Position numbers and translations under genes: made by a program | Source of the DNA: an uncultured Candidatus Saccharibacteria bacterium | GTDB taxonomy: Bacteria > Patescibacteriota > Minisyncoccia > Phycocordibacterales > UBA9988 | Assembly (NCBI GenBank): GCA_964401135.1 | Contig: CAYNXC010000001.1 | Location: 210,264 to 274,263 of the forward strand | Direction of reading: 5' to 3' | Length of the DNA: 64,000 nt | Shown here: piece by piece, positions 1,855 to 53,607 of the stretch | Layout: every line of letters starts with the position of its first letter | Numbering within the stretch: position 1 is the first letter of the stretch | Notes under the pieces: model-generated | Seen by the model: the letters and a program-made list of their open reading frames with translations, nothing else | What the model was told of the DNA's origin: nothing | Databases searched by the model: none

Positions 1855-3387
1855 ATGAGCTGGAGTGTATCTTCTTTTCTTGCAGTCATCATGCGGCGTC
1901 CATGGCGCTACAGTCTTATCGGCGTGGTACTGCTCGGGGTAATTGTCTGGTTTGTAGTCATCCGAGGTAGTGGGGATGGAGATTTTGAATCAGTAGTGGT
2001 TACACGAAGAACATTAATTGAATCGGTAATGGTGTCGGGAAAAGTCCAACCAGCACAGGAAGCAAGTCTCGCCTTTGAAACAAGCGGGGCTGTCTCGCGC
2101 ATCCCCGCCACCGTGGGGACAATGGTAATGCAGGGAGATACGATTATTGCTCTCAGTAATGGGGAAGTATCTGCCCAATATGATGCAGAGCTTATTAAAT
2201 TGAGCGAATTAAAAAATGGAACCCGCCCAGAGGAGATTGCCGTCTCTCTGCGAGAACTTGAGAGTGCCCGAGTAGCAGTAGCAGAAAAGGGGCTGGAGTT
2301 AAGTGTAGCACTCAACGATGCGTATGTTCGTGCAAGTAATGCGATAAATACTGTAGACCGAATTATAGATAATCCTAATTCACAGAATGCTACGCCCTCT
2401 TTTCCTATACCAGATGCAGATTTAAAGATTTCGATCGCTTTTGCTCGTAAAACGATCTCCACTGCTCTACCTGTATGGCGCACACTCACCTTACAAGCAA
2501 GTACGACTGATAGCCTGGCCTCAGCGATGACCGTCTCATTAAATACCATAAACATCATTCGTAATTACCTAACACTCCTCTCAGGAGCACTTACAGACCT
2601 TCCCAACGACATGGCAATCAGGAGTCTGAGTGTCGCTACCGTCCGTTCTGATATGACAAGTGCACGAACATCTCTAGAAACAGCTGCTTCATCACTAACT
2701 TCGGCACATACCGCGTGGCAGAACGCTCGTACTGCACTTGAGGTATCGGAACGCCAACTGACCCTCAAGCAATCAGGATCGCGGTCTGAAGTAATAGACG
2801 CACAAGAGGCCGTGGTAAGGCAGTATGAAGCAAAGCTTGCGAAAACAGTGCTCCGTGCCCCTTTTAACGGTATTGTGACCACTATTGCTGTTGAGCTTGG
2901 CGAATTGGCCCCCGCAAATCAAAAAGTGGCAGGACTCATGTCGGCAAACGTTTTTGAGGTAAAGGCGCAGGTGCCAGAAGTAGAGATTGCAAAAATTGCT
3001 GTGGGTAACACCGCAACAATTACATTAGATGCCTACGGCACTGGGGTATCCTTCCCAGCAACAGTGAGCGAAATAGAGCCAGCAGAGACGGTTGTGGGAG
3101 GTATACCTACTTACACCACGATACTCTCCTTCACGCAAGAAGATCCTCGCATTAGGAGTGGTATGACAGCAAACATCACCATTACCGGCAAAAGACGGCC
3201 AAACATACTAGCCATACCCGCATCTGCTCTTTCATTACATAACGGCAATCGCATTGTTAAAATTCCCGCACGCAATAAAGACGGCTTTACGGAGCGGACG
3301 GTGACAACAGGTGTTTTTGACTCCGATGGAAGTGTAGAGATTCTCTCTGGTCTCTCCGAGAATGAGACGGTACTGGTCCCACACTAA
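1855..3387 (+). CDS. HlyD/MacA-family periplasmic adaptor (membrane fusion protein) of an ABC exporter
   Basis: N-terminal TM anchor, coiled-coil and beta-barrel regions typical of membrane fusion proteins. It is followed immediately by the permease and ATPase genes. Confidence 0.7.
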   Translation: MSWSVSSFLAVIMRRPWRYSLIGVVLLGVIVWFVVIRGSGDGDFESVVVTRRTLIESVMVSGKVQPAQEASLAFETSGAVSRIPATVGTMVMQGDTIIALSNGEVSAQYDAELIKLSELKNGTRPEEIAVSLRELESARVAVAEKGLELSVALNDAYVRASNAINTVDRIIDNPNSQNATPSFPIPDADLKISIAFARKTISTALPVWRTLTLQASTTDSLASAMTVSLNTINIIRNYLTLLSGALTDLPNDMAIRSLSVATVRSDMTSARTSLETAASSLTSAHTAWQNARTALEVSERQLTLKQSGSRSEVIDAQEAVVRQYEAKLAKTVLRAPFNGIVTTIAVELGELAPANQKVAGLMSANVFEVKAQVPEVEIAKIAVGNTATITLDAYGTGVSFPATVSEIEPAETVVGGIPTYTTILSFTQEDPRIRSGMTANITITGKRRPNILAIPASALSLHNGNRIVKIPARNKDGFTERTVTTGVFDSDGSVEILSGLSENETVLVPH

Positions 3388-3395
3388 CTCTCCTT

Positions 3396-4649
3396 ATGCC
3401 TTCACACGCGCTCCGAGTTGGATTCTTTCTCGCCATCAGACAATTGCGCCGAGCGCATGTCTGGACCAATGTGCTCATAATTGCAGTAATGACACTCACC
3501 TTCTTAAACCTCGTCGTGGTAAGCGGAATTTTGGTTGGCTTGATTGAAGGAGCTGTTGAGACAATTCAGTCTCACTATACCAGTGATGTGATTGTGAGTA
3601 ATCGCTTAGAGCGTAACTACATAGAACGGACCCCATTCATTCTCTCGGTGATTGAGTCGCTCCCTGATGTCGTCTCCGCTACTCCACGCTATGTGGAAGG
3701 AGGAAATGTTGAAGCAGATTACTCAATCACCAAAAAAGATTCAGAGATTGGTAACGAAGCGGGGACCTCCATTGTGGGCATTGATCCCGAGAGAGAGCAG
3801 GCCGTCTCACGGTTAGGAGACCTTATTATCGAAGGATCCTATCTCTCTTCTCATGACTATGACCAAGTGCTTGTAGGTGCCCTTCTTCTTAAAAAGTATT
3901 TAAACATCGATTCGCAGTCCTTCCAGGCGCTTGCAAATGTAGAAGTGGGAACTAAAATACGCGTCACTGTCAATGGCAACACGCGAGATGTTACCGTAAA
4001 AGGGATTATTAGGAGTAAGGCGGATGAGATTGACCGGCGCGTTTTCTTTGTAGATAAGCAGTTGCGCCCTATGATTGGGCGCACAGATTATAACGCTGAT
4101 GAAATCGCCATCAAACTCCGCCCCGGGGCGGATCCTGCTGTAGTGCGTGATGCCATACTTGCGCAAGGTGTGGATGACTACGCCCGCGTACAGACGGCCG
4201 ACGATGCTGAACCAAAATTTGTGAAGGATATGAAGCAGACCTTTGCAATTTTAGGGAATATTATCAGCTCCGTTGGTCTCGTTGTTGCCTCCATCACCAT
4301 TTTCATCGTCATTTTTATTAACGCAATCACACGCAAAAAGTACATTGGTATTTTAAAAGGCATCGGTATTAGCGGTAGGACCATTGAGTACTCATACATA
4401 TTCCAAGCAGCATTCTACGCGATAGCGGGAACAGGACTCGGCATCCTTATAGTGTATGGAGTGTTAGAACCCTATCTGCGTGCGCATCCAATCAACTTCC
4501 CTTTCTCTGACGGCATTCTCGTAGTTACCGTACTCGGGACCACAGTACGCGCGGTTGTACTATTTGTTTCCACCTTCATCTCTGGATACATTCCTGCGCG
4601 CATTGTTATTTCAGGCAACACCTTAGATGCTATTTTAGGGAGAAAGTGA
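3396..4649 (+). CDS. ABC transporter permease, FtsX/MacB-like
   Basis: N-terminal TM, a large extracytoplasmic domain and three C-terminal TMs (FtsX-like topology). The stop overlaps the start of the next gene (ATGA). Confidence 0.75.
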   Translation: MPSHALRVGFFLAIRQLRRAHVWTNVLIIAVMTLTFLNLVVVSGILVGLIEGAVETIQSHYTSDVIVSNRLERNYIERTPFILSVIESLPDVVSATPRYVEGGNVEADYSITKKDSEIGNEAGTSIVGIDPEREQAVSRLGDLIIEGSYLSSHDYDQVLVGALLLKKYLNIDSQSFQALANVEVGTKIRVTVNGNTRDVTVKGIIRSKADEIDRRVFFVDKQLRPMIGRTDYNADEIAIKLRPGADPAVVRDAILAQGVDDYARVQTADDAEPKFVKDMKQTFAILGNIISSVGLVVASITIFIVIFINAITRKKYIGILKGIGISGRTIEYSYIFQAAFYAIAGTGLGILIVYGVLEPYLRAHPINFPFSDGILVVTVLGTTVRAVVLFVSTFISGYIPARIVISGNTLDAILGRK

Positions 4650-7230: not shown

Positions 7231-7374
7231 GTTTCTTATGAAACACTTATGATTTCCTATACAAGATGACCTTTGTCCATGAGAATATCCTTATTTTTAG
7301 CCAATTTGATTTTATCCTATCTGTCTTTTATACACAGTATACACAGATTTATCCACAAAGAGACTGTCTTTTTG

Positions 7375-7445
7375 TGCGGGCAGGGAGAATCGAACTCCCA
7401 TATCCTGCTTGGAAGGCAGGTGTTCTACCATTAAACCATGCCCGC
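7375..7445 (-). tRNA. tRNA-Gly (anticodon UCC)
   Basis: Acceptor GCGGGCA/TGCCCGC, anticodon stem CCTGC/GCAGG with loop CTTCCAA. Confidence 0.8.
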
Positions 7446-7460
7446 TTTCTCTTTTCCTTG

Positions 7461-7532
7461 TGTCCCCGGCAGGACTCGAACCCGCAACGCATGGTCCGAA
7501 GCCATGAATGATATCCATTTCACCACAGGGAC
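7461..7532 (-). tRNA. tRNA-Arg (anticodon UCG)
   Basis: Acceptor GTCCCTG/CGGGGAC, anticodon stem CATGG/CCATG with loop CTTCGGA, T-arm GCGGGTTCGAGTCCTGC. Confidence 0.7.
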
Positions 7533-15713: not shown

Positions 15714-16870
15714 TGCCGCTTGATGAACAGCGCCGCAAAGCGGCGCTTGCAATGGCAAGTCCCGAACAGCGGAAGCGGCAATTAGAGCGAGAGAAGCGCG
15801 AAGCAGAACTACAATCAGAGAGGGAAAAGCAAGCAGAACAAGCACAGGCACTTGAACTCGCACGCCAGAAGAAAGAAGCAGAGGCGCGTATTTTGAGAGA
15901 GGCAGAAGAACGAGAACAAAAACAACGAGAAAATAGTCGTCTTGAAAAAGCGCGCAAAGCGGAGGAGCAGATCAGTATGTTAAAGCGCCAAGCGCTGGGT
16001 ATCAATCAGCTCCGCACCATGAAGAGTGACTTGGAGCGAGCACAAAAGAAAGAGGCATCCCCTACATGGGCAGGATCTGCTGTTCCTGTCGGGACGCCAA
16101 TACTCAACGCACATTCACAAAAGCGTTATGTAGCAGAAGAGGAACCAACGCGATCTCGTCCAATACTCTGGTGGCTCGGAGGAGGACTCCTTGCGCTCCT
16201 TGCGCTTGGGGGCGGCGCGGCCTACATCATTTTTTCATCACAGGGGAGTATCCCAGGAGCGGCGAAGGAGCCAAGTGCTCCAGGCGCCCTCGTTACAGCA
16301 GAACAAACAATCGCTATTGATACTACGGGGAAAAATCCAGAGAACCTGCGCAGTATCATCACTCAGAAAATTATTACCGAGACACATAAAACAGGTTTAA
16401 CGCGCGCTTACTTTACCTACCAAGCAACACCAACCTCAAGCCCTGTCGTGTTAGGGGTAGGGGAGTGGCTCAATCGTGTAGGAGCATCTGCGCCAGGACT
16501 CCTAGTGCGCTCACTTGATAACTCCTTTGATTACGGAGCCTACCAATTGGTACCAAACGCGGCCTACATTATTCTCTCAAGCAAGGCCCCACAGAACGCC
16601 TTCTCTGGTATGCTCCAGTGGGAAGACACGACACTAGCCAAAGATCTGATCCCGCTTGTAAGCGGGAGCACGGTGGATGAAGGGCTCCTGCGTGGGACAT
16701 TTGAAGATAAGGTACTCTCTGGACTCAATATAGATGCGCGCATCTTGCGAGATACTACGGGGAACACTCGTCTTGTATACACCGTTTTGAGTGCACAAGG
16801 CGTTATCATCATTACCAAAGACGAAAAGACTCTTGCCGAGCTCTACCGGAGGGTCATTATTCCAGGTTAG
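15710..16870 (+). CDS. Hypothetical bitopic membrane protein (charged coiled-coil N-terminus, one TM, extracytoplasmic domain)
   Basis: ATGA overlap with the previous gene. TM segment WWLGGGLLALLALGGGAAYIIF. Confidence 0.5.
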   Translation: MMPLDEQRRKAALAMASPEQRKRQLEREKREAELQSEREKQAEQAQALELARQKKEAEARILREAEEREQKQRENSRLEKARKAEEQISMLKRQALGINQLRTMKSDLERAQKKEASPTWAGSAVPVGTPILNAHSQKRYVAEEEPTRSRPILWWLGGGLLALLALGGGAAYIIFSSQGSIPGAAKEPSAPGALVTAEQTIAIDTTGKNPENLRSIITQKIITETHKTGLTRAYFTYQATPTSSPVVLGVGEWLNRVGASAPGLLVRSLDNSFDYGAYQLVPNAAYIILSSKAPQNAFSGMLQWEDTTLAKDLIPLVSGSTVDEGLLRGTFEDKVLSGLNIDARILRDTTGNTRLVYTVLSAQGVIIITKDEKTLAELYRRVIIPG

Positions 16871-41765: not shown

Positions 41766-42464
41766 CTACGCGTGGAGGCGTTTATAGCCCTGTTCGTAAG
41801 CAATAGAGAAGAGGGTGTTAGTAAGCCAGTACAGAGCAACTGCGGCAGGGAGGCCAGCTGATACCACACCAATCACTATCGGCATAATATACTTCATTTG
41901 GAACTGCAGACTTCGATTAAAATCCTCAGCAAACGAGCGTTCTTCAGTTTGATTTGGAGAGGATGAGGGGAGAGAGAGTTTTGTGTGAATAAACTGTGCA
42001 ATGGTAATAATTACTGCAAACACAATACTTTTTGCACCTAGATCAACACCAAGAAAGATGGCATTAACATACGATGGCGCATGAACAAATGAGTAGAGCC
42101 CGTACTTGAGAGACTCCAGACCATCCCGAAAGACAAGAAATAAGCCAATAAATATGGGTATTTGCACTAAAATAACGGCAAACCCAGCAAAGGGATTGAC
42201 CCGGTGTTCTTTATAGAGCGCCATGACGCGACGAGCCTCCTCTTCACGATTACCAACAGTGTCTTTTTTGATTTTTTTCAGCTCCGGTTCTATTTTTTTC
42301 AGCTCTTTCTGTGTAGATAGAGCTCTATTTTGGAGAGGGATAAGCACTATCTTTACCAGCACTGTAAGAACAATAATAGAAAGTCCAATACTATTCCCAG
42401 GGAGTACTCCTGTTAAAAACACGAGGGCATTATAGAGAGGTTCGGATATGAGTGTATGGAACAT
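41766..42464 (-). CDS. yidC: Membrane protein insertase YidC/Oxa1 (short form)
   Basis: Conserved YidC core LIPLQNRALSTQKELKKIEPELKKIKK...NPFAG. Position is downstream of rnpA. Confidence 0.85.
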   Translation of the reverse strand: MFHTLISEPLYNALVFLTGVLPGNSIGLSIIVLTVLVKIVLIPLQNRALSTQKELKKIEPELKKIKKDTVGNREEEARRVMALYKEHRVNPFAGFAVILVQIPIFIGLFLVFRDGLESLKYGLYSFVHAPSYVNAIFLGVDLGAKSIVFAVIITIAQFIHTKLSLPSSSPNQTEERSFAEDFNRSLQFQMKYIMPIVIGVVSAGLPAAVALYWLTNTLFSIAYEQGYKRLHA

Positions 42465-42471
42465 ACAGTGA

Positions 42472-42804
42472 CTACCTTAGCATATTCTTGATAGAAGTGA
42501 GAAGTTCATCTGTCTTCATCTTTAACTCCTTCTCACTCATTGTAGAGGGGTACGCAGTGAGACGGAGTACCATATCTACACCCTTGCCAATAAAATTATG
42601 TTGTTCAATACTCGTGTAGAGTATGCGTTTGACACGATGGCGATCAACAGAGCTCTTCACCACCACTTTTGGGACAACCACAGAGATTTTCGTCTCTGTG
42701 GAGGAGTGGGCAATGCGAATAGTAGTGAAAGGATTAGTGTATGTTAACCATCTTCTACGGATAGAAAAATCGGCCCTCTTCAGCCGATTTTTTTTAGGCA
42801 ACAT
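42472..42804 (-). CDS. rnpA: Ribonuclease P protein component
   Basis: MLPKKNRLKRADF.. basic N-terminus, between rpmH and yidC. Confidence 0.75.
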   Translation of the reverse strand: MLPKKNRLKRADFSIRRRWLTYTNPFTTIRIAHSSTETKISVVVPKVVVKSSVDRHRVKRILYTSIEQHNFIGKGVDMVLRLTAYPSTMSEKELKMKTDELLTSIKNMLR

Positions 42805-42815
42805 ACACAGTATGG

Positions 42816-42950
42816 CTACACAGCAAGCTTTTTGCGACCTTTTCGCATCCGCCGCAACAAAACACCACGCCCAGAAGAAGTCTTTGTTCTGGTAAGAAAC
42901 CCATGGGTCTTCTGCCTCTTTCTATTCTTTGGATTATAGGTAAACGACAT
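42816..42950 (-). CDS. rpmH: 50S ribosomal protein L34
   Basis: Own translation: [44 protein letters not shown] (44 aa). Below the ORF-track size cutoff. Confidence 0.8.
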
Positions 42951-43096
42951 ACGAATGGAGTATACAGAATGTATATACTTTTTTCAAGAGAATATACTTA
43001 TCCACCATAATCCACTCCTTATAAACATCTTGGATAGGTTTGTAGTTTAGTACTAAGAGTACTATAATCGCAACATAAAAATAACGAGCGGACCCT

Positions 43097-44440
43097 ATGG
43101 ACAACAAAGATCTTTGGGACAACGCCCTTGCGGAGATTGAAGTATATGTATCAAAAGCTAATTTTGGAACATGGTTTCGTAATACAGTAATTCTAAAGAC
43201 GGAAGGTGGGACAGTACATCTCGGAGTACCTAATGCTTTTGTGAAGGATTGGCTATCTAATAAATACCATCTTTCTATTCTTAAAGCGTTGAGAAATCAC
43301 TCTGAACAAATAAAGCATGTTGAATATATTGTTATTCGTGGAGAAAAGATAAAGATAGAAGAACTGCCAGTTAAACCCCTCTTTCGCGATCAATTAGAGC
43401 TATCTGAGTTGTATGTAAACAAAGAAGACAACTTAAACCCAAAATACATCTTTGATTCTTTTATTGTTGGACCATTTAACGAGACAGCATACGCCGCAGG
43501 ACAAGCAATCATTAAATCTCCAGGGACTACATACAATCCCTTATACATCTATGGAGGTACAGGGTTAGGAAAAACACACCTCACCCAAGCAATAGGGAAC
43601 ACCATCAAACAATTACACCCAAATAAAAAAGTTTACTACATTACTTCGGAGAAATTTGTTATCGAGGTAGTAAATGCAATTCAGAACAATAAAGCAAATG
43701 TATTCAAGGAAAAATATCGTAAGTATGATGTGTTTATTATGGATGATGTTCAATTTATTGCTAATAAAGATAAAACACAAGAAGAATTATTCCATTTATT
43801 TAATAGCCTATACGATCAAAATAAGCAGATTATTTTTTCATCAGATAAAATTCCAAAATATATACCAAACTTAGAAGAACGGTTACGATCTCGTTTTGAA
43901 GGTGGAATGATTATTGATATTGCACTACCAGACTACGAATCTCGCCTAGCAATATTAAAATCTAAGATAAAACAGAGTGATTTTTCTCCATCTGATGAGA
44001 TCATTGAATATGTTGCGTCAGTTATTAAGGGAAATATTAGAGAATTAGAAGGTGTTCTTAACTCTATTATTTGCCAATGCCAGTTAAAAAATAGAAATTT
44101 GAATTTGAGTGAGGTAAAAAACCTTATAAAAAATACCATAAAACCACAAAAAACCATCTCTATTAAGGATGTTCTTAAGATTATTGCTGGGTTTTATAGT
44201 ATTGATGAGAAGGTACTCTATGAAAAAACAAGGAGGAAGGAGGTAGTAAAACCGAGACAAATTATTATGTATATCCTCCGTGAAGATTTCAACATCTCTT
44301 ATCCTTACATTGGTCAAAAATTAGGTGGGAGAGATCACACAACTGTGATTCATGCATATGAAAAAATAAAAAAAGAAGTAAAACAGAATAATCTTATTAC
44401 ACAAGAAGTCGAACAAATACGGTCATTACTATACAACTAA
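43097..44440 (+). CDS. dnaA: Chromosomal replication initiator DnaA
   Basis: AAA+ Walker A GGTGLGKTHL, box VII, and the C-terminal DNA-binding signature KLGGRDHTTV. Confidence 0.9.
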   Translation: MDNKDLWDNALAEIEVYVSKANFGTWFRNTVILKTEGGTVHLGVPNAFVKDWLSNKYHLSILKALRNHSEQIKHVEYIVIRGEKIKIEELPVKPLFRDQLELSELYVNKEDNLNPKYIFDSFIVGPFNETAYAAGQAIIKSPGTTYNPLYIYGGTGLGKTHLTQAIGNTIKQLHPNKKVYYITSEKFVIEVVNAIQNNKANVFKEKYRKYDVFIMDDVQFIANKDKTQEELFHLFNSLYDQNKQIIFSSDKIPKYIPNLEERLRSRFEGGMIIDIALPDYESRLAILKSKIKQSDFSPSDEIIEYVASVIKGNIRELEGVLNSIICQCQLKNRNLNLSEVKNLIKNTIKPQKTISIKDVLKIIAGFYSIDEKVLYEKTRRKEVVKPRQIIMYILREDFNISYPYIGQKLGGRDHTTVIHAYEKIKKEVKQNNLITQEVEQIRSLLYN

Positions 44441-44657
44441 TATGTATAACTTGTGAATTATTAGTGAATAAAAAGTAGATAGTAAATTTTAAAAATAAAA
44501 AAATAAAAGATAATTCACTTACATACATACCTTATGTTCATACTATATCCACAATTCATAATAGTAAAAAATTAACACTAAACTCCTTTATAAGACTTAT
44601 CCACTTTATCAACAATACTAATAGTAATAAGTATTTAAAAAAAAGAATTTAATTATT
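44441..44657. other. Candidate oriC: AT-rich dnaA-dnaN intergenic region with DnaA-box-like 9-mers
   Basis: More than 80% AT. Contains ATATCCACA (44555-44563), TTATCCACT (44597-44605) and TGTGAATTA (44453-44461). Further boxes TTATCCACC, TAATCCACT and TGGATAGGT lie upstream of dnaA (42998-43039). Confidence 0.5.
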
Positions 44658-45752
44658 ATGAAAGTAGAATGTGTAAAAGAAAAACTAAAGGACGCATTAC
44701 TTACTGCTGATCGTATTACAGGTAAAAATTTATCGCTCCCCATCCTTTCTTATATTTATCTGCGAGCAATAAAAAATAAAATAATTATTAGATCAACAAA
44801 CCTTGATATTGGTGTTGAGATTATACTACCAGCAAAAGTAGTGAGAGAAGGACTAGTTGTTGTTCCTGGTTCATTACTTATTTCTGTACTATCAAATTCA
44901 ACCCATGAGATGATTACCCTTGAAGAAGTGAATGGTAATATAACAATTACTACACCAAATTTAAATACAATTATTAAGAGTGTCCCGAGTGATGATTATC
45001 CAAATTTACCTAAAAACGAAACAAGTGATGAGTATACACTACATACTTCACTCCTTACTTTAGGTATACAATCTGTTGTATTTGCGGCCTCATTGAGTGA
45101 TATTAAACCAGAAATAGCGAGTGTTTATATCTACTCTCACGACTCTCAATTATTATTTGTTTCGACTGATGGATTTAGATTGGCTGAAAAAAAGTTTCCA
45201 ATAAAATTATCACATGAATTTAAAGCCATTATTCCTTATAGAAATGCACTTGAAATAGCAAAGATCTTAGTTGGAAGTGATGAAGATTCTAAGATATTAC
45301 TCTCACCATCACTTATATCAATTCAAAGTGGGAACTATACTATTACTTCACGACTTATTGATGGGGTATATCCAGATTATCCACAATTAATACCATCATC
45401 ATTTTCTACTACATCAAGAATACCAAAACAGGACCTTGTAAACACATTACGACTCGCTCATATTTTTTGTGATAGAACAAATCAAATTCAACTTACTATT
45501 CAAGTGAGTGAAGCACTTTTTATGATTTATTCTCAAAATACTGAGAAGGGTGAATACTCGTCATCATTACAGTCAATTGTTGATGGTGAAGATCTACAGA
45601 TGAATGTTAATGTACGATATTTAGTGGATATATTATCCATTCTTCACAACCCAACAGTGTTTATTGGGTGTAATGGTCGTGGTAAGCCACTTTTTGTTCG
45701 GGATGATGGTGATAATTCTTTTCTATATCTTGTCATGCCAATGAATCGGTAA
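44658..45752 (+). CDS. dnaN: DNA polymerase III beta sliding clamp
   Basis: Position after dnaA, roughly 364 aa, three-domain clamp-like pattern. Confidence 0.8.
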   Translation: MKVECVKEKLKDALLTADRITGKNLSLPILSYIYLRAIKNKIIIRSTNLDIGVEIILPAKVVREGLVVVPGSLLISVLSNSTHEMITLEEVNGNITITTPNLNTIIKSVPSDDYPNLPKNETSDEYTLHTSLLTLGIQSVVFAASLSDIKPEIASVYIYSHDSQLLFVSTDGFRLAEKKFPIKLSHEFKAIIPYRNALEIAKILVGSDEDSKILLSPSLISIQSGNYTITSRLIDGVYPDYPQLIPSSFSTTSRIPKQDLVNTLRLAHIFCDRTNQIQLTIQVSEALFMIYSQNTEKGEYSSSLQSIVDGEDLQMNVNVRYLVDILSILHNPTVFIGCNGRGKPLFVRDDGDNSFLYLVMPMNR

Positions 45753-45755
45753 TGT

Positions 45756-46016
45756 ATGAACTCAATCTCTGATTTTTTAGGTAAATTTTCACAATTTCAA
45801 GATAATCAATCTCGGATAAAAAAAACGATATCCAGTATTATTCAAAATATATCAGGGATGGATATTCCTGAAACAAATATAGATATTATAGAAGATAGAG
45901 TCTATCTTAAGGTACACCCGGCTATATTAAATGAAATACTCATTCACAAATCTGTGGTGCTAACAGAAATTGAAAAAAAAACAAAAAAAATGTATAGAAT
46001 TATCGGCTTATCGTAG
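45756..46016 (+). CDS. DUF721-like small protein (possible DciA-like helicase-loader homologue)
   Basis: 86 aa immediately after dnaN, with a pattern reminiscent of DUF721. Weak support. Confidence 0.35.
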   Translation: MNSISDFLGKFSQFQDNQSRIKKTISSIIQNISGMDIPETNIDIIEDRVYLKVHPAILNEILIHKSVVLTEIEKKTKKMYRIIGLS

Positions 46017-49661: not shown

Positions 49662-50153
49662 TTAGCGCATCAGGGGTCGCGCCGTCAAGGCCACCGCAAT
49701 TGCGTCGTACTCATCGTCATGCCGGCGCGTGGCATCCATCATAAGGAGCGTCCGTACCATTGAACTCACCTGTCTCTTATCTGCATTCCCATACCCAGTA
49801 ACTGCGCGCTTAATCTCTTGTGGGGTGAACTCTAGAAAAGAGAGTGCATGCTGTGTAGCAATGTATCGGATAATCCCGCGCAGTTCAGCAACCGCGATGC
49901 CTGTTTTTTGGTTCTTGGTAAAAAAAATCTTTTCGCACGCAAGAATTTTTGGACACCACTTTGTAATAGTGTGTTCCAACACTGTCCCAATTTCTAAAAA
50001 ACGAACATCCAGTGCTCCTGGAACTGGAGTTATGCATGATGACCAGAGAAGCACATCTTTATTGTGTTGTTGCTCAACAACTGCGATACCGCAACGATCG
50101 TACCCAGGGTCTACCCCAAGAACAATAACAGGCTTTTTATGCGTAGGCAGCAT
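49662..50153 (-). CDS. ruvC: Holliday junction resolvase RuvC
   Basis: VLGVDPGYDRCGIAVV (catalytic Asp) and RNase H-like fold residues. The start is set at the internal Met, four codons downstream of the ORF-track start. Confidence 0.8.
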   Translation of the reverse strand: MLPTHKKPVIVLGVDPGYDRCGIAVVEQQHNKDVLLWSSCITPVPGALDVRFLEIGTVLEHTITKWCPKILACEKIFFTKNQKTGIAVAELRGIIRYIATQHALSFLEFTPQEIKRAVTGYGNADKRQVSSMVRTLLMMDATRRHDDEYDAIAVALTARPLMR

Positions 50154-50673
50154 TTGAGAAGACATTTTTCACATCCGGATGCTCGTCTAATGCATCAATA
50201 ATAAGACCTAGTGTCTCAACCTCATCCTCTCGTATAGGTACTACAGTCTGCGCTTCCCACTCATCACCTTTGTGGGTAAACGCCCACTGAGCGCTCCCCG
50301 GACTTGCGAAGTTTGCACCGTGCGATGAAAGGAGATGACGGATCTCTGCAGCAGTTCTATTTTTATTATCAGTCATCCCTACAATGAGTAGCGCGCTCCC
50401 TCCGGGGCCATAAGCCTCGTAGAGCACTTCTTCGTACTGTGCGTCTCCTCCACCACTTCCCTTAACAATTGCTCGTTCAATATTCTCTGTTGGCATATTT
50501 GACGAGCGAGCTTTCTCTATCACAGCGCGTAGGCGTGGATGATTACGATCTCCGCTAGATGCGCGAGCTTCCATTGTAATTGCTCGTACTAGCATAGAGA
50601 ATAACTTACTCTTCTTTGCATCTTCGGCCGCTTTCTTATTTTTTATCTGTGACCATTTATTATGTCCTGACAT
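50137..50673 (-). CDS. YebC/PmpR-family protein (shortened)
   Basis: MSGHNKWSQIKNKKAAEDAKKSKLF... is the canonical YebC N-terminus. 178 aa, shorter than typical. Confidence 0.7.
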   Translation of the reverse strand: MSGHNKWSQIKNKKAAEDAKKSKLFSMLVRAITMEARASSGDRNHPRLRAVIEKARSSNMPTENIERAIVKGSGGGDAQYEEVLYEAYGPGGSALLIVGMTDNKNRTAAEIRHLLSSHGANFASPGSAQWAFTHKGDEWEAQTVVPIREDEVETLGLIIDALDEHPDVKNVFSNAAYA

Positions 50674-50676
50674 AGT

Positions 50677-51693
50677 CTAGAGTAATGAAGATTGTGCTGG
50701 TGTGTCGTAGCCGAGGTGTTTGTAGGCGCGTTCTGTTGCTGTCCTACCGCGTGGTGTTCTCTCAATCAATCCTAACTGTATGAGGTAAGGCTCGTTGATC
50801 TCTTCTATCGTAGATTCATCCTCGGCGAGTGCAGTGGCAATTGTCCCGACCCCGACTGGTCCTCCGTGGAAAGTCTCTATGATAACCGAGAGAACTCGAC
50901 GGTCAATAGAGGAGAGTCCTAGCTCGTCAATTTCTAACAGAGAGAGTGCCTCGTGCACCGTTTCTTTGTTGAGTACCCGTCGTTTGACTTGTGCGTAGTC
51001 ACGAGCCCGTTTCAGGTATTGGTTAGCTATACGGGGAGTGAAGCGGCTCCGCCGAGCAATCTCGGTAATCGCACTCTCTTCGATAGGAACAGCGAGGATC
51101 CGTGCGGATCTTCGAATGATAGTACCTATCTCCTCCTCGGTGTAGAACTCTAATCGGAATGTGCCACCACCAAATCGTGAGCGGAGCGGTGCAGAGAGGA
51201 GTGAGATGCGCGTAGTTGCCGCAATGAGAGTGAATGGGGGAAGTTCTAACTGGATACTGCGTGCTCCTGGCCCCTTCCCAATAATAATATTGAGCATACC
51301 TGATTCCATCGCGGGGTAGAGTACTTCCTCGATCAATTTATTGAGACGATGAGCCTCGTCTATAAATAGAATATCACCCGGTGATAGGTTGGTGAGAATA
51401 GATGCAATGTCTCCTACCTTTTCAATTGCTGGTCCGGAGGTTGTTTTTATTTGTGCGCCCATCTCTCGTGCAATTAAGTAGGCGATGGTGGTCTTCCCCA
51501 AGCCCGGAGGCCCGTAGAAGAGAAGGTGTTCTGGAGGGTGTTTACGCTCTTCTGCTGCTGATAGGAGGATACGAAGGTTCCCTTTAATGTGCTCCTGTCC
51601 CACATACTCATCCCACGAGTTCGGGCGTAGGGCGCTGTCTAAGTGCCGCTCGTGTTCCGAAATTTCTATCTCTAGTGTTTTATTACTTGACAT
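50677..51693 (-). CDS. ruvB: Holliday junction branch-migration helicase RuvB
   Basis: Walker A GPPGLGKTT, Walker B ILFIDEAHRL, sensor motifs and a C-terminal winged helix. Confidence 0.9.
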   Translation of the reverse strand: MSSNKTLEIEISEHERHLDSALRPNSWDEYVGQEHIKGNLRILLSAAEERKHPPEHLLFYGPPGLGKTTIAYLIAREMGAQIKTTSGPAIEKVGDIASILTNLSPGDILFIDEAHRLNKLIEEVLYPAMESGMLNIIIGKGPGARSIQLELPPFTLIAATTRISLLSAPLRSRFGGGTFRLEFYTEEEIGTIIRRSARILAVPIEESAITEIARRSRFTPRIANQYLKRARDYAQVKRRVLNKETVHEALSLLEIDELGLSSIDRRVLSVIIETFHGGPVGVGTIATALAEDESTIEEINEPYLIQLGLIERTPRGRTATERAYKHLGYDTPAQSSLL

Positions 51694-51735
51694 GAAATAT
51701 AATGTATGCTAGTGTCAACCCTGACTGAACGGAGT

Positions 51736-51880
51736 AATCTCTAAGCAATCGGGGCGCAAGCCTATGGGTCTGTCTGCTAGGACGCTTTGGTCTTCTCACT
51801 TTAGTGAGACTGCTGGTGCTATCCTCGTGGGCAAGCCTGCCTTCTTGGAGTTCCAAGAAGGATTGTTTAGAGATTTTTTC
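51736..51880 (+). ncRNA. Candidate structured small RNA of unknown class, ending in an intrinsic terminator
   Basis: A 15-bp closing helix AAUCUCUAAGCAAUC/GAUUGUUUAGAGAUU is perfect with one G-U pair on the plus strand but needs an A-C mismatch on the minus strand. It is followed by UUUUU. Internal perfect hairpins include CCUUCUUGG-aguu-CCAAGAAGG and UCUCAC-uuua-GUGAGA, plus a GNRA-type GGC-GCAA-GCC. A TATAAT lies at 51698-51703. Confidence 0.3.
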
Positions 51881-51888
51881 GCTCAGTC

Positions 51889-53607
51889 TCAATGATCTTC
51901 ACCCGTAAGGTCAATGACACGCCCTAACTCATCTAAGGAGGTATCACCGCGTAATACCTTTAAGACACCATCCTCGCGCATGGTGAGGATATTTTGAGGG
52001 AGTGCTGCGCGTCTGATTTCCCGTTCGCTCGGATTGCTTAAGGTGACAGTGGTAATTGCCTCATCCGAGCGTATTGCCTCAAAAATACCACTTCGTCCTT
52101 TGTAGCCTGTCATGTTACAGAGAGGACAACCAACTGCCACAAAGTAGTGATCTGTGGTGGAGGCGCTAATGTCAGGGCGCCGCGAAGAGATTGCCTCCGT
52201 TGTCTTTTGTAGGAGAGCCAACTCCTCAGGTGAAGGGGTGGCCTCTTTTTTGCATCTCTCACAAAGCTTCCGTACGAGGCGTTGCGCAATAGCGATTGTG
52301 AGCGCTGATCCAATCACTTTTGGATTAACGCCAAGATCGATGAGGCGTGGGATGGTGCCTGCCGCGGTGTTTGTGTGGAGGGTGCTAAAGACCAAGTGCC
52401 CCGTGAGTGCGGAGTTGACCGCGACTCCTGCCGTCTCTTTGTCACGAATCTCACCAACCATAATAATGTCTGGGTCTTGGCGCAAGGCAGAACGGAGCCC
52501 CTCCAAAAAAGTATAGCCCTTATCTTCCTCCACCTGCGTTTGGTTGATACCATCAAGGTGATACTCAACAGGGTCCTCAATGGTGATGATTTTATTCCCC
52601 GTGTTTGAGACATAGCGCAAGAATGCGTAGAGTGTGGTGGTCTTACCACTTCCTGTTGGCCCAGTGAGCAGGATCATCCCGTTTGGTTTGGAGAGCTCCT
52701 CTTCAAAAACGCTCTTGAGTCGCGGCTCAATACCTAACTTGTCAAAAGTGAGCGCTATTGTCTCTGGGTTGAGTATGCGCATAACTACCGACTCTCCGTA
52801 AGTGCCGGGTATGATGGAGCTACGGATCTCCATCTCGGTACCCTTAAGCCGGACGCTAAAGCGACCATCTTGCGCAACATTTTTTAAGTTCAACTTCATT
52901 GCAGAGACGAGTTTAATACGCATGAGTACATTGTGGAAAATCTTTGCGTCTATGTGCACAATGTCTTGGAGTACTCCGTCTAGCCGGTAGCGTAGGCGTA
53001 TAGAAGCATCTTCTGGCTCGATGTGAATATCGGACGATGAGAGTGCGATGGCTCCAGAGAGAATAACCTCGACGAGGTTGGAGATGCCTTGCCCTGATCG
53101 GACCGCCACCTCTTCCTGTTCAACGAGCTTTTGCGCGTCATCGATACTTTTTATTTTCTCTAGGTATGATGAGAGTACCTCTTCAGAAATTGAGATAACT
53201 CCCGCGTCGGTCCGGGAACTCTTAGAGATCTCTGCGTAGTGCTCCCATGCGCGCGCGAGACTCTTTTTTGATGCAATATATAGGGATGGGATGAAGCCCT
53301 TCTCCCTCAACTCCTCAAGTATTCCAGAGACGGCTGGAGAGTCTGGAATCGCGGCGGCAATGTCGATTTTTTTTCCTGTGGCTCGGAAGGAAGCGACAGA
53401 AGACTGCTCTGCTTCTTCTTGGGGTATGATACGGAGAGCATCAGTGTTAATGGCGATGGTGGAGAGGTCAATGTAGGGGATACCGAACTTTGCCGCTACA
53501 ATTTGCGCCAGATCTTCCTCCTCTTTAGCGTGGAGGTCAGCAATACGCTTATCTTGCTTCTCTTCATCAAAACTAATCATCTTTATAGTGTAGCACGAGA
53601 AGCCCAC
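51889..53607 (-). CDS. pilB: Type II/IV secretion-system ATPase (PilB/GspE family; type IV pilus assembly ATPase)
   Basis: Walker A GPTGSGKTTT, Asp/His boxes, and a C-terminal tetracysteine C..C...C..C. Confidence 0.85.
   Translation of the reverse strand: MGFSCYTIKMISFDEEKQDKRIADLHAKEEEDLAQIVAAKFGIPYIDLSTIAINTDALRIIPQEEAEQSSVASFRATGKKIDIAAAIPDSPAVSGILEELREKGFIPSLYIASKKSLARAWEHYAEISKSSRTDAGVISISEEVLSSYLEKIKSIDDAQKLVEQEEVAVRSGQGISNLVEVILSGAIALSSSDIHIEPEDASIRLRYRLDGVLQDIVHIDAKIFHNVLMRIKLVSAMKLNLKNVAQDGRFSVRLKGTEMEIRSSIIPGTYGESVVMRILNPETIALTFDKLGIEPRLKSVFEEELSKPNGMILLTGPTGSGKTTTLYAFLRYVSNTGNKIITIEDPVEYHLDGINQTQVEEDKGYTFLEGLRSALRQDPDIIMVGEIRDKETAGVAVNSALTGHLVFSTLHTNTAAGTIPRLIDLGVNPKVIGSALTIAIAQRLVRKLCERCKKEATPSPEELALLQKTTEAISSRRPDISASTTDHYFVAVGCPLCNMTGYKGRSGIFEAIRSDEAITTVTLSNPSEREIRRAALPQNILTMREDGVLKVLRGDTSLDELGRVIDLTGEDH

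Follow-up and report, generated by a model that had tools for sequence, protein, structure and literature searches.

A predicted family of structured small RNAs encoded beside ruvB in Paceibacteria

Among the small RNAs (sRNAs) described in bacteria, 6S RNA (SsrS; RF00013), the GadY-type cis-antisense sRNAs, the raiA motif, OLE, and HEARO RNAs, and the Y RNAs (Ro60/Rsr) come closest to the RNA considered here, which is predicted on the plus strand between ruvB and a pilB-type gene in a 64-kb stretch of contig CAYNXC010000001.1 (hereafter the window, to whose positions all coordinates refer; ruvB is on the minus strand). 6S RNA measures about 150 to 200 nucleotides (nt), joins its ends in a helix, contains a second long helix, and is made as a precursor from a strong sigma-70 promoter throughout whole lineages, traits that recur in our RNA, for which abundance and stability are predicted. 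GadY-type sRNAs lie opposite two co-oriented genes, as does our RNA, which would be fully complementary to any read-through transcript of these. The raiA motif, OLE, and HEARO RNAs were likewise defined by covariation, have several helices and their own promoter and terminator, are restricted to certain lineages, and have no assigned biochemical function. Y RNAs share with our RNA a conserved terminal stem formed by both ends, variable internal hairpins, and a frequently U-rich 3' end.

Despite these likenesses, the RNA matched no known family. We found no Rfam 15 family for it at the gathering score (window), at E <= 10 (51650-51950), or at E <= 5 (20 homologues), and the permissive matches were of chance level (small nucleolar RNAs, microRNAs, long noncoding RNAs), none of them recurring. 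ARAGORN predicted no tRNA or transfer-messenger RNA (tmRNA) in 51500-52100. The initial annotation of this element had been unable to equate it with signal recognition particle (SRP) RNA, 6S RNA, tmRNA, or RNase P RNA, and the Rfam 15 and ARAGORN searches agree; when 147 kb of related loci were scanned for these four RNAs, only tRNAs turned up, a result that is uninformative for exclusion. The RNA is also not described in the literature searched, including systematic surveys of bacterial noncoding RNAs (ncRNAs) from the Breaker lab. Unlike the raiA motif, OLE, and HEARO RNAs, with which it shares no sequence or structure (no Rfam match), it is rigidly fixed beside one gene and comes from bacteria of the candidate phyla radiation (CPR); it is also smaller than OLE or HEARO. 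It differs from Y RNAs in matching no bacterial Y RNA model and in having no tRNA-like module (ARAGORN). The element thus represents a new sRNA family of an already known kind, the structured sRNAs of bacteria, and we have little doubt that it is a real plus-strand RNA gene, whose transcription is predicted from sequence. CPR bacteria account for a large share of bacterial diversity, and in Rfam 15 and the literature searched, almost no ncRNAs are described from them beyond the universal ones. The elements of the predicted gene are as follows.

51687..51692, plus strand: -35 element TTGACA, overlapping the ruvB start codon (complement of CAT, 51691-51693)
51705..51715, plus strand: extended -10 element, made of TATG (51705-51708, a TRTG motif), C, and TAGTGT (51710-51715), 17 nt after the -35 element
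51723..51888, plus strand: predicted RNA, with the 5' end placed from the promoter and the 3' end at the U-tract (51874-51879) or at the end of extended P1 (51888)
51723..51750, plus strand: 5' strand of helix P1, core AAUCUCUAAGCAAUC at 51736-51750; inverted repeat I1
51752..51763, plus strand: P2 hairpin GGGC-GCAA-GCCU, a variable and dispensable arm
51766..51838, plus strand: P3, a long irregular arm with a conserved core (51779-51791 / 51812-51825)
51840..51861, plus strand: P4 hairpin CCUUCUUGG-AGUU-CCAAGAAGG, perfect inverted repeat I2, a variable arm
51861..51888, plus strand: 3' strand of P1, including the U6 tract (51874-51879)

The plus strand of 51722-51890 (169 nt) folded into a four-way junction of -82.8 kcal/mol (z = -7.6, with none of 200 shuffles as good), and over 51730-51882 it reached -72 kcal/mol (z = -6.9) versus -48.6 kcal/mol (z = -4.2) for the minus strand. 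The fold has 66 base pairs (bp), 13 of them G-U (9 in P3), and junction linkers of 0 to 5 unpaired bases. The initial annotation had described a 15-bp terminal helix, internal hairpins, and a downstream U tract, and all are present: the inner P1 helix pairs 51736-51750 with 51861-51875 through 15 bp with one G-U (51745/51866), the GGC-GCAA-GCC, UCUCAC/GUGAGA (51794-51799 / 51804-51809), and CCTTCTTGG/CCAAGAAGG (51840-51848 / 51853-51861) stems lie where it had put them, and six U residues occupy 51874-51879. It had taken the whole for an sRNA of roughly 140 nt on the plus strand. The structured plus-strand element stands, and its length is refined upward, since P1 extends outward to 51723/51888 (28 positions, 26 pairs), giving a predicted RNA of about 157 to 166 nt.

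We assembled homologues by two routes. Starting from RuvB and taking one genome per species, we obtained 80 loci, 75 of which had enough upstream flank; all 80 belong to metagenome-assembled genomes of Paceibacteria/Parcubacteria, their RuvB is 64 to 94% identical to that of the window, and they cover Vogel-, Yonath-, Nomura-, Taylor-, Lloyd-, Zambryski-, Adler-, and Campbellbacteria along with others. A metagenome scan anchored on the RNA itself by an exact pattern, independent of ruvB, yielded 120 loci, in which the P1 and P3 cores were fixed by the search pattern. Several of the matching contigs derive from the Hainich wells H41, H43, and H51. Genomes and metagenomes together provided 167 distinct RNA homologues, predicted to be 129 to 196 nt long. 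A covariance model trained on 15 sequences (50 model pairs, with P2 left out) matched the window at 51726-51884 with 131.9 bits (opposite strand, 27.8 bits) and found one strong match in each of the 75 genome loci (46 to 142 bits; 25 to 50 bits on the reverse strand). It also confirmed 99 of the 100 metagenome loci L081 to L180, to which this check extended (E <= 1e-10), L181 to L200 lying outside that scan. A RuvB protein search returned close relatives only (>=68% identity) and so carries no information on other CPR classes.

Covariation backs the fold. On the 70 distinct sequences of the genome set, 89.8% of the alignment cells were paired, versus 72.6% after column shuffles and about 45% with the 3' partners slid; two-sided changes were seen in 44 of the 50 pairs, and none of 500 shuffles did as well. 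An alignment made with MAFFT only still gave compensatory changes at 35/50 pairs, and the metagenome set had 89.7% paired cells and compensatory changes in 33/50 pairs. Conservation and covariation had been named at the outset as the check on the proposed helices, and both were found across the 167 homologues. The strand, which had been deduced from G-U pairing, also holds: G-U/U-G cells outnumber A-C/C-A cells across the family (406 versus 98), the forward strand has the lower minimum free energy in 153/167 homologues irrespective of alignment (mean -60.7 versus -48.4 kcal/mol), one U-G pair is kept in 54 of 70 genome-set sequences, and promoter and terminators have the same orientation. We detected no conserved open reading frame (ORF) on either strand (median longest ORF of 30 and 24 amino acids [aa]), and coding potential was rejected, as the 43-aa and 69-aa ORFs that run over the element in the window are not conserved.

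The four helices evolve very differently. P1 spans 23 to 29 bp across the family; its core, AAUCUCUAAGCAAUC / GAUUGYUUAGAGAUU, hardly varies, while the pairs farther out covary without restriction, and compensatory changes were found in 19 of its 21 pairs (genome set). The P3 core consists, in order, of AGGA/UCCU, an unpaired C opposite Y-A, with both the C and the A invariant, and a helix of 8 to 9 bp, and it includes a tandem U-G/G-U (U-G in 66/79, G-U in 65/79) next to a G-C kept in 79/79; the apical hairpin of P3 (51794-51809) is variable. P2 occurs as hairpins of 4 to 8 bp whose stem sequences are unrelated between lineages, often with UUCG, GNRA, or CUUG loops; its 128 distinct segments average -3.9 kcal/mol versus -2.0 kcal/mol for shuffled ones. 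Covariation was seen in all P4 model pairs. Because P2 is missing in 5/170 homologues and P4 is nearly absent in 2/170, the putative functional core of the RNA is P1 plus P3. Locus L055 has a second, tandem copy (3138-3294, minus strand) directly 3' of the main one (3322-3492); this paralogue has a diverged but re-paired P1, an intact P3 core, and its own U-run, and folds at -59.8 kcal/mol (z = -7.0).

The transcription signals are equally regular. The promoter, of the sigma-70 type, follows the consensus CTTGACAT-N12-TATGCTAnnnT (TTGACA, a 17-nt spacer, and an extended -10) in 62 of the 75 genome loci, and the window copy at 51687-51715 is the sole perfect match to TTGACA-N14-TGnTAnnnT in 64 kb, with one further match at <=1 mismatch (position 16868). 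Transcription is predicted to start at about 51722-51724, which coincides with the first base of extended P1. The TATAAT noted initially is present at 51698-51703 but is probably not the -10, because it lies within the spacer between TTGACA and TAGTGT (N17), only 5 nt from the -35. A run of at least four U residues closes P1 in 92/167 homologues, a separate hairpin with a U-run follows within 90 nt in the RNA orientation in 39/167, and 108/167 have a U-tract or terminator. The gene thus has the generic attributes of an sRNA gene, namely, its own promoter, a termination signal, conserved structure, and no conserved ORF. The transcribed leader that separates the promoter from P1 is 3 to 287 nt long, depending on the homologue, and some lineages have tandem promoters. 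The constant paired ends combined with such variable leaders suggest that the primary transcript would be trimmed back to P1, as happens with other stable RNAs.

We then looked into the genomic position of the RNA. The initial annotation had placed the element between two minus-strand genes, ruvB and pilB; both flanking genes are indeed on the minus strand, and the linkage is specifically to ruvB. ruvB is divergent from and adjoins the RNA in 75/75 genome loci and in 110 of the 120 metagenome loci, the other 10 contigs having under 400 nt of sequence upstream of it, so that it is present in 110/110 metagenome loci with enough flank. pilB usually lies across the RNA from ruvB; in L011, L017, and L036 it is elsewhere, and the RNA has stayed with ruvB. 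In 143 of the 155 loci with a recognizable promoter (about 92%), TTGACA is followed by T, the complement being ATGTCAA, and that ATG opens a long ruvB ORF or runs off the contig in 132 cases and is usually the sole upstream in-frame start. Since the ATG within this complement opens the ruvB ORF, the predicted -35 of the RNA promoter and the start codon of ruvB are the same DNA. The position of the promoter is fixed relative to ruvB, and its distance to the RNA varies. In the window, 29 nt separate the ruvB ATG from extended P1 (51723) and 42 nt separate it from the P1 core (51736).

The leaders of 48/155 loci contain ATTATAGCA, which reads on the ruvB strand as the extended -10 TGCTATAAT facing the strong RNA promoter (47 to 68 nt upstream of the ATG in two loci inspected closely); a ruvB transcript from there would overlap the sRNA for a short stretch. 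Two other candidate ruvB promoters were rejected: TAGCAT, which TATGCTA yields on the bottom strand, is more readily accounted for by the TRTG (R = A/G) extended -10 motif of the RNA promoter, and TAnnnT at -13 to -8 does not exceed the frequency predicted from composition. The leaders are also rich in 9-mers resembling DnaA boxes (7.5 per kb versus a background of 0.98 per kb), nearly all in one orientation and at least two per leader in 31 cases, and in these lineages a second -10-like TAGTATAAT often precedes the RNA. This pattern suggests control by DnaA of ruvB, of the RNA, or of both in the lineages with leader boxes. The lineage of the window has neither ATTATAGCA, the 9-mers, nor the second TAGTATAAT in its leader. 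Where they occur, three to four 9-mers stand in tandem with a 12-nt period (TTATCAACA, TATCCACA, TATACACA), followed by ATTATAGCA and, about 20 nt on, by TAGTATAAT on the RNA strand (L095, L106, L117, L136, L178, L162, L169, L143, L140, L011, L029, L031, L129, L110, and others).

We consider it probable, with ample room for doubt, that the element is a stable, independently transcribed, structured sRNA of a family absent from Rfam 15 and Paceibacteria-wide, which binds protein and is coupled in cis to ruvB. The invariant surfaces, CUCUAAG/CUUAGAG in the P1 duplex and, in the P3 core, the C/UA loop with the UGG/CUG tandem wobble, would be recognition sites for a partner, most likely a protein, and the RNA would act in trans as a ribonucleoprotein (RNP) or as a protein-titrating RNA. 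RNA polymerase at the RNA promoter would cover the ruvB initiation region, and in many lineages, this promoter would also face a ruvB promoter inside the RNA leader, so that RNA synthesis and the start of ruvB expression could be mutually antagonistic. Taken singly, both halves of this proposal are tentative: we put the trans-acting, protein-binding role at somewhat less than an even chance, and we regard the cis coupling to ruvB expression with the same reserve.

Several observations weigh against this proposal. Expression, RNA ends, and processing are predictions. A model of the P3 core alone, run on 1.3 Mb of related DNA, found only the known copies and one tandem paralogue; with the core occurring nowhere else in that DNA, no second binding site points to a partner. 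A role exclusively in cis would account for the absolute linkage to ruvB equally well. In the window lineage, we recognized no ruvB promoter between the RNA and the ATG, and because none fits there, transcription of ruvB may have to pass through the RNA gene. Finally, about 20% of the longer leaders contain a terminator-like hairpin and U-run between the strong promoter and the RNA, which is awkward if that promoter is the main RNA promoter in those lineages; the hairpin could act as an attenuator, stabilize the 5' end, or indicate that the RNA has a different promoter there. This short, GC-rich leader hairpin is found in L067, L058, L077, L063, L080, L066, L078, L071, L072, L075, L040, L050, L060, L065, L016, and L018.

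The purely cis alternative, in which the element acts on ruvB and on pilB-ruvB read-through by promoter occlusion, polymerase collision, or antisense pairing of the GadY type, and its structure serves only stability, termination, and fast pairing, is unlikely, and it is still the rival we take most seriously. It accounts well for the absolute linkage to ruvB, for a -35 fused to the ruvB ATG in a promoter whose position is kept relative to ruvB and not to the RNA, for the convergent TGCTATAAT in 48/155 leaders, and for a window lineage whose 29 or 42 nt leave no room for a ruvB promoter, so that the ruvB transcript would cross the RNA gene. An antisense RNA, however, needs no conserved sequence, and the P1 and P3 cores are near-invariant even where RuvB is only 64 to 70% identical. 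The L055 paralogue keeps its P3 core, and in several genomes, a bidirectional terminator between pilB and the RNA would let no read-through reach the RNA. Our RNA further departs from the GadY type in its four-helix structure and class-wide conservation of primary sequence, in a promoter that overlaps the start codon of the downstream gene, and in being linked to ruvB alone, also without pilB; the overlapping minus-strand transcript is only implied. Distinctly less likely is a divergent 6S-like RNA, a rod that would imitate open promoter DNA and thereby sequester the sigma-70 holoenzyme; P1 would be its closing stem, P3 its internal stem, and the P2/P4 junction its bubble. Its size (129 to 196 nt), a long closing helix with a long second helix, a very strong promoter, tandem promoters with variable precursors in some lineages, and its presence in every genome examined all speak for this idea, and hairpins on the bubble strands are variable in some 6S RNAs, as P2 and P4 are here. 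Yet no 6S family was matched at E <= 10 in the window or at E <= 5 in 20 homologues, and where 6S RNA has an open bubble, the helices of our RNA meet in a compact four-way junction that leaves hardly any base unpaired, and its P2 and P4 are real covarying hairpins. The 5' side of the would-be bubble is down to 4 to 6 nt in 5 homologues, which leaves no template strand for a product RNA, and P1 and P3 are strongly conserved in sequence in our RNA.

The favored sRNA reading also has a bolder form, which we regard as a long shot: the RNA would be a trans regulator of the Ruv machinery, its four-way junction serving as a decoy or cofactor for RuvA, RuvB, or RuvC and tuning Holliday-junction processing in DNA-scavenging symbionts or, in a less exotic version, it would be the RNA subunit of a CPR-specific housekeeping RNP. 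DNA uptake through the type IV pili of CPR bacteria has been suggested. A functional minus strand, as a pilB 3' untranslated region (UTR), a ruvB 5' leader, or an intercistronic processing element of a pilB-ruvB mRNA, is very improbable. Both flanking genes are on that strand, the fold there is better than chance (z = -4.2), and the element always precedes ruvB; against this, 13 of the 66 window pairs are G-U and would turn into C-A mismatches, the family-wide ratio of 406 G-U to 98 A-C cells and the greater stability of the forward strand in 153/167 homologues point the other way, the U-G conserved in 54/70 would become a conserved mismatch, promoter and terminators are oriented oppositely, and the element remains with ruvB where pilB is elsewhere. 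There is next to no chance that no RNA gene exists and that the element is a palindromic DNA sequence, some repeat or miniature mobile element, or hairpins clustered by chance. A long inverted repeat with conserved arms might suggest as much, but the element is single-copy in the window and per locus and always syntenic, its compensatory changes include G-U intermediates, which make sense only in RNA, the 14-mer of the P1 core shows no enrichment across the rest of the window, and none was found in the viral contigs scanned, where a stricter pattern gave 18 loci with none confirmed by the covariance model and a looser pattern gave saturating random matches only.

Known RNA classes were considered one by one and rejected. 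SRP RNA, whose conserved domain IV has a GNAR tetraloop and, beside the apex, symmetric and asymmetric loops, has no Rfam match here, and an SRP-like role is excluded by the apex of P3, which varies in sequence and length, with the conserved core lying below it. RNase P RNA likewise has no match and is about 330 to 400 nt long, versus 129 to 196 nt for our element, and ARAGORN and Rfam were negative for a tmRNA or tRNA-like RNA. A riboswitch or leader of ruvB is contradicted by the pairing, energies, promoter, and terminators, which place the RNA opposite ruvB. For a bacterial Y RNA, Rfam gave no Y RNA/YrlA match, and the called genes at the locus include no TROVE protein; Rsr is not known to be general in Paceibacteria.

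The family offers a concrete experimental target, with a score of about 130 bits, 167 distinct sequences, four covariation-supported helices, and a consensus promoter. The fusion of the -35 with the ruvB start poses a testable question, namely, whether an sRNA gene and its promoter control recombination and repair in bacteria that may depend on taking up DNA. If the RNA is a component of a housekeeping RNP, it would join the very few bacterial RNPs that occur clade-wide.

The genes called around the locus are pilB, ruvB, yebC, ruvC, and tyrS, and the two that flank the RNA are arranged as follows.

50677..51693, minus strand: ruvB, with Pfam RuvB_N, AAA, and WHD_RuvB on the identical protein (precomputed hits, identical contigs)
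51889..53607, minus strand: pilB-type T2SSE/MshEN ATPase gene (precomputed Pfam hits on identical contigs)
51889-51891, minus strand: pilB stop codon, 1 nt past the end of the P1 3' strand

No Shine-Dalgarno-like sequence precedes the ruvB ATG in the window. ruvB and yebC are spaced by 3 nt, and the yebC and ruvC frames overlap by 29 nt at 50137-50165 (16 nt with the shorter ruvC start of identical contigs), which implies that ruvB-yebC-ruvC would form a tightly packed operon. ruvA does not adjoin ruvB; in several relatives, it lies on the same strand 8 to 9 kb upstream, with type IV pilus genes in between (L070:888-1442, L064, L058, L067, L071, L072, L074, and L076 to L078). A query with an E. 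coli RuvA sequence detected no RuvA-like sequence in the 64-kb window; with the same query, we rejected the idea that the RNA replaces ruvA, as ruvA is present 8 to 9 kb away in several loci.

In at least 62 related loci, dnaA-dnaN and the ruvB/RNA region are 6 to 9 kb apart. In the window, dnaA occupies 43097-44440 and dnaN 44658-45752, the GC content falls to 0.30 to 0.38 across 42000-46000, and DnaA boxes cluster at 42998-43027, upstream of dnaA, and at 44545-44614, between dnaA and dnaN. The low GC content and the box clusters make this region a likely replication origin. The RNA shares its strand with dnaA and lies about 6 to 7 kb away.

Elsewhere among the loci, a perfect TTGACA-N17-TGnTAnnnT promoter recurs before a long AT-rich leader hairpin (e.g., TAGTATTGTTATATTT...AATATAACAATACTA); the hairpin is followed by an ORF starting with MKK near pilB, which may encode a highly expressed pilin from an mRNA with a structured 5' UTR. 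Such sites were found in L099 (minus strand, about 1992), L116 (plus, about 6415), L187 (plus, about 8288), and L194 (minus, about 2178), with further loci in L091, L086, L026, L124, L145, L152, and L154. In the window, two additional DnaA-box matches, TTATACACA and TTATCCACA, lie 12 nt apart at 7328-7357 (plus strand), beside a pair of tRNA genes at 7375-7532 (minus strand).

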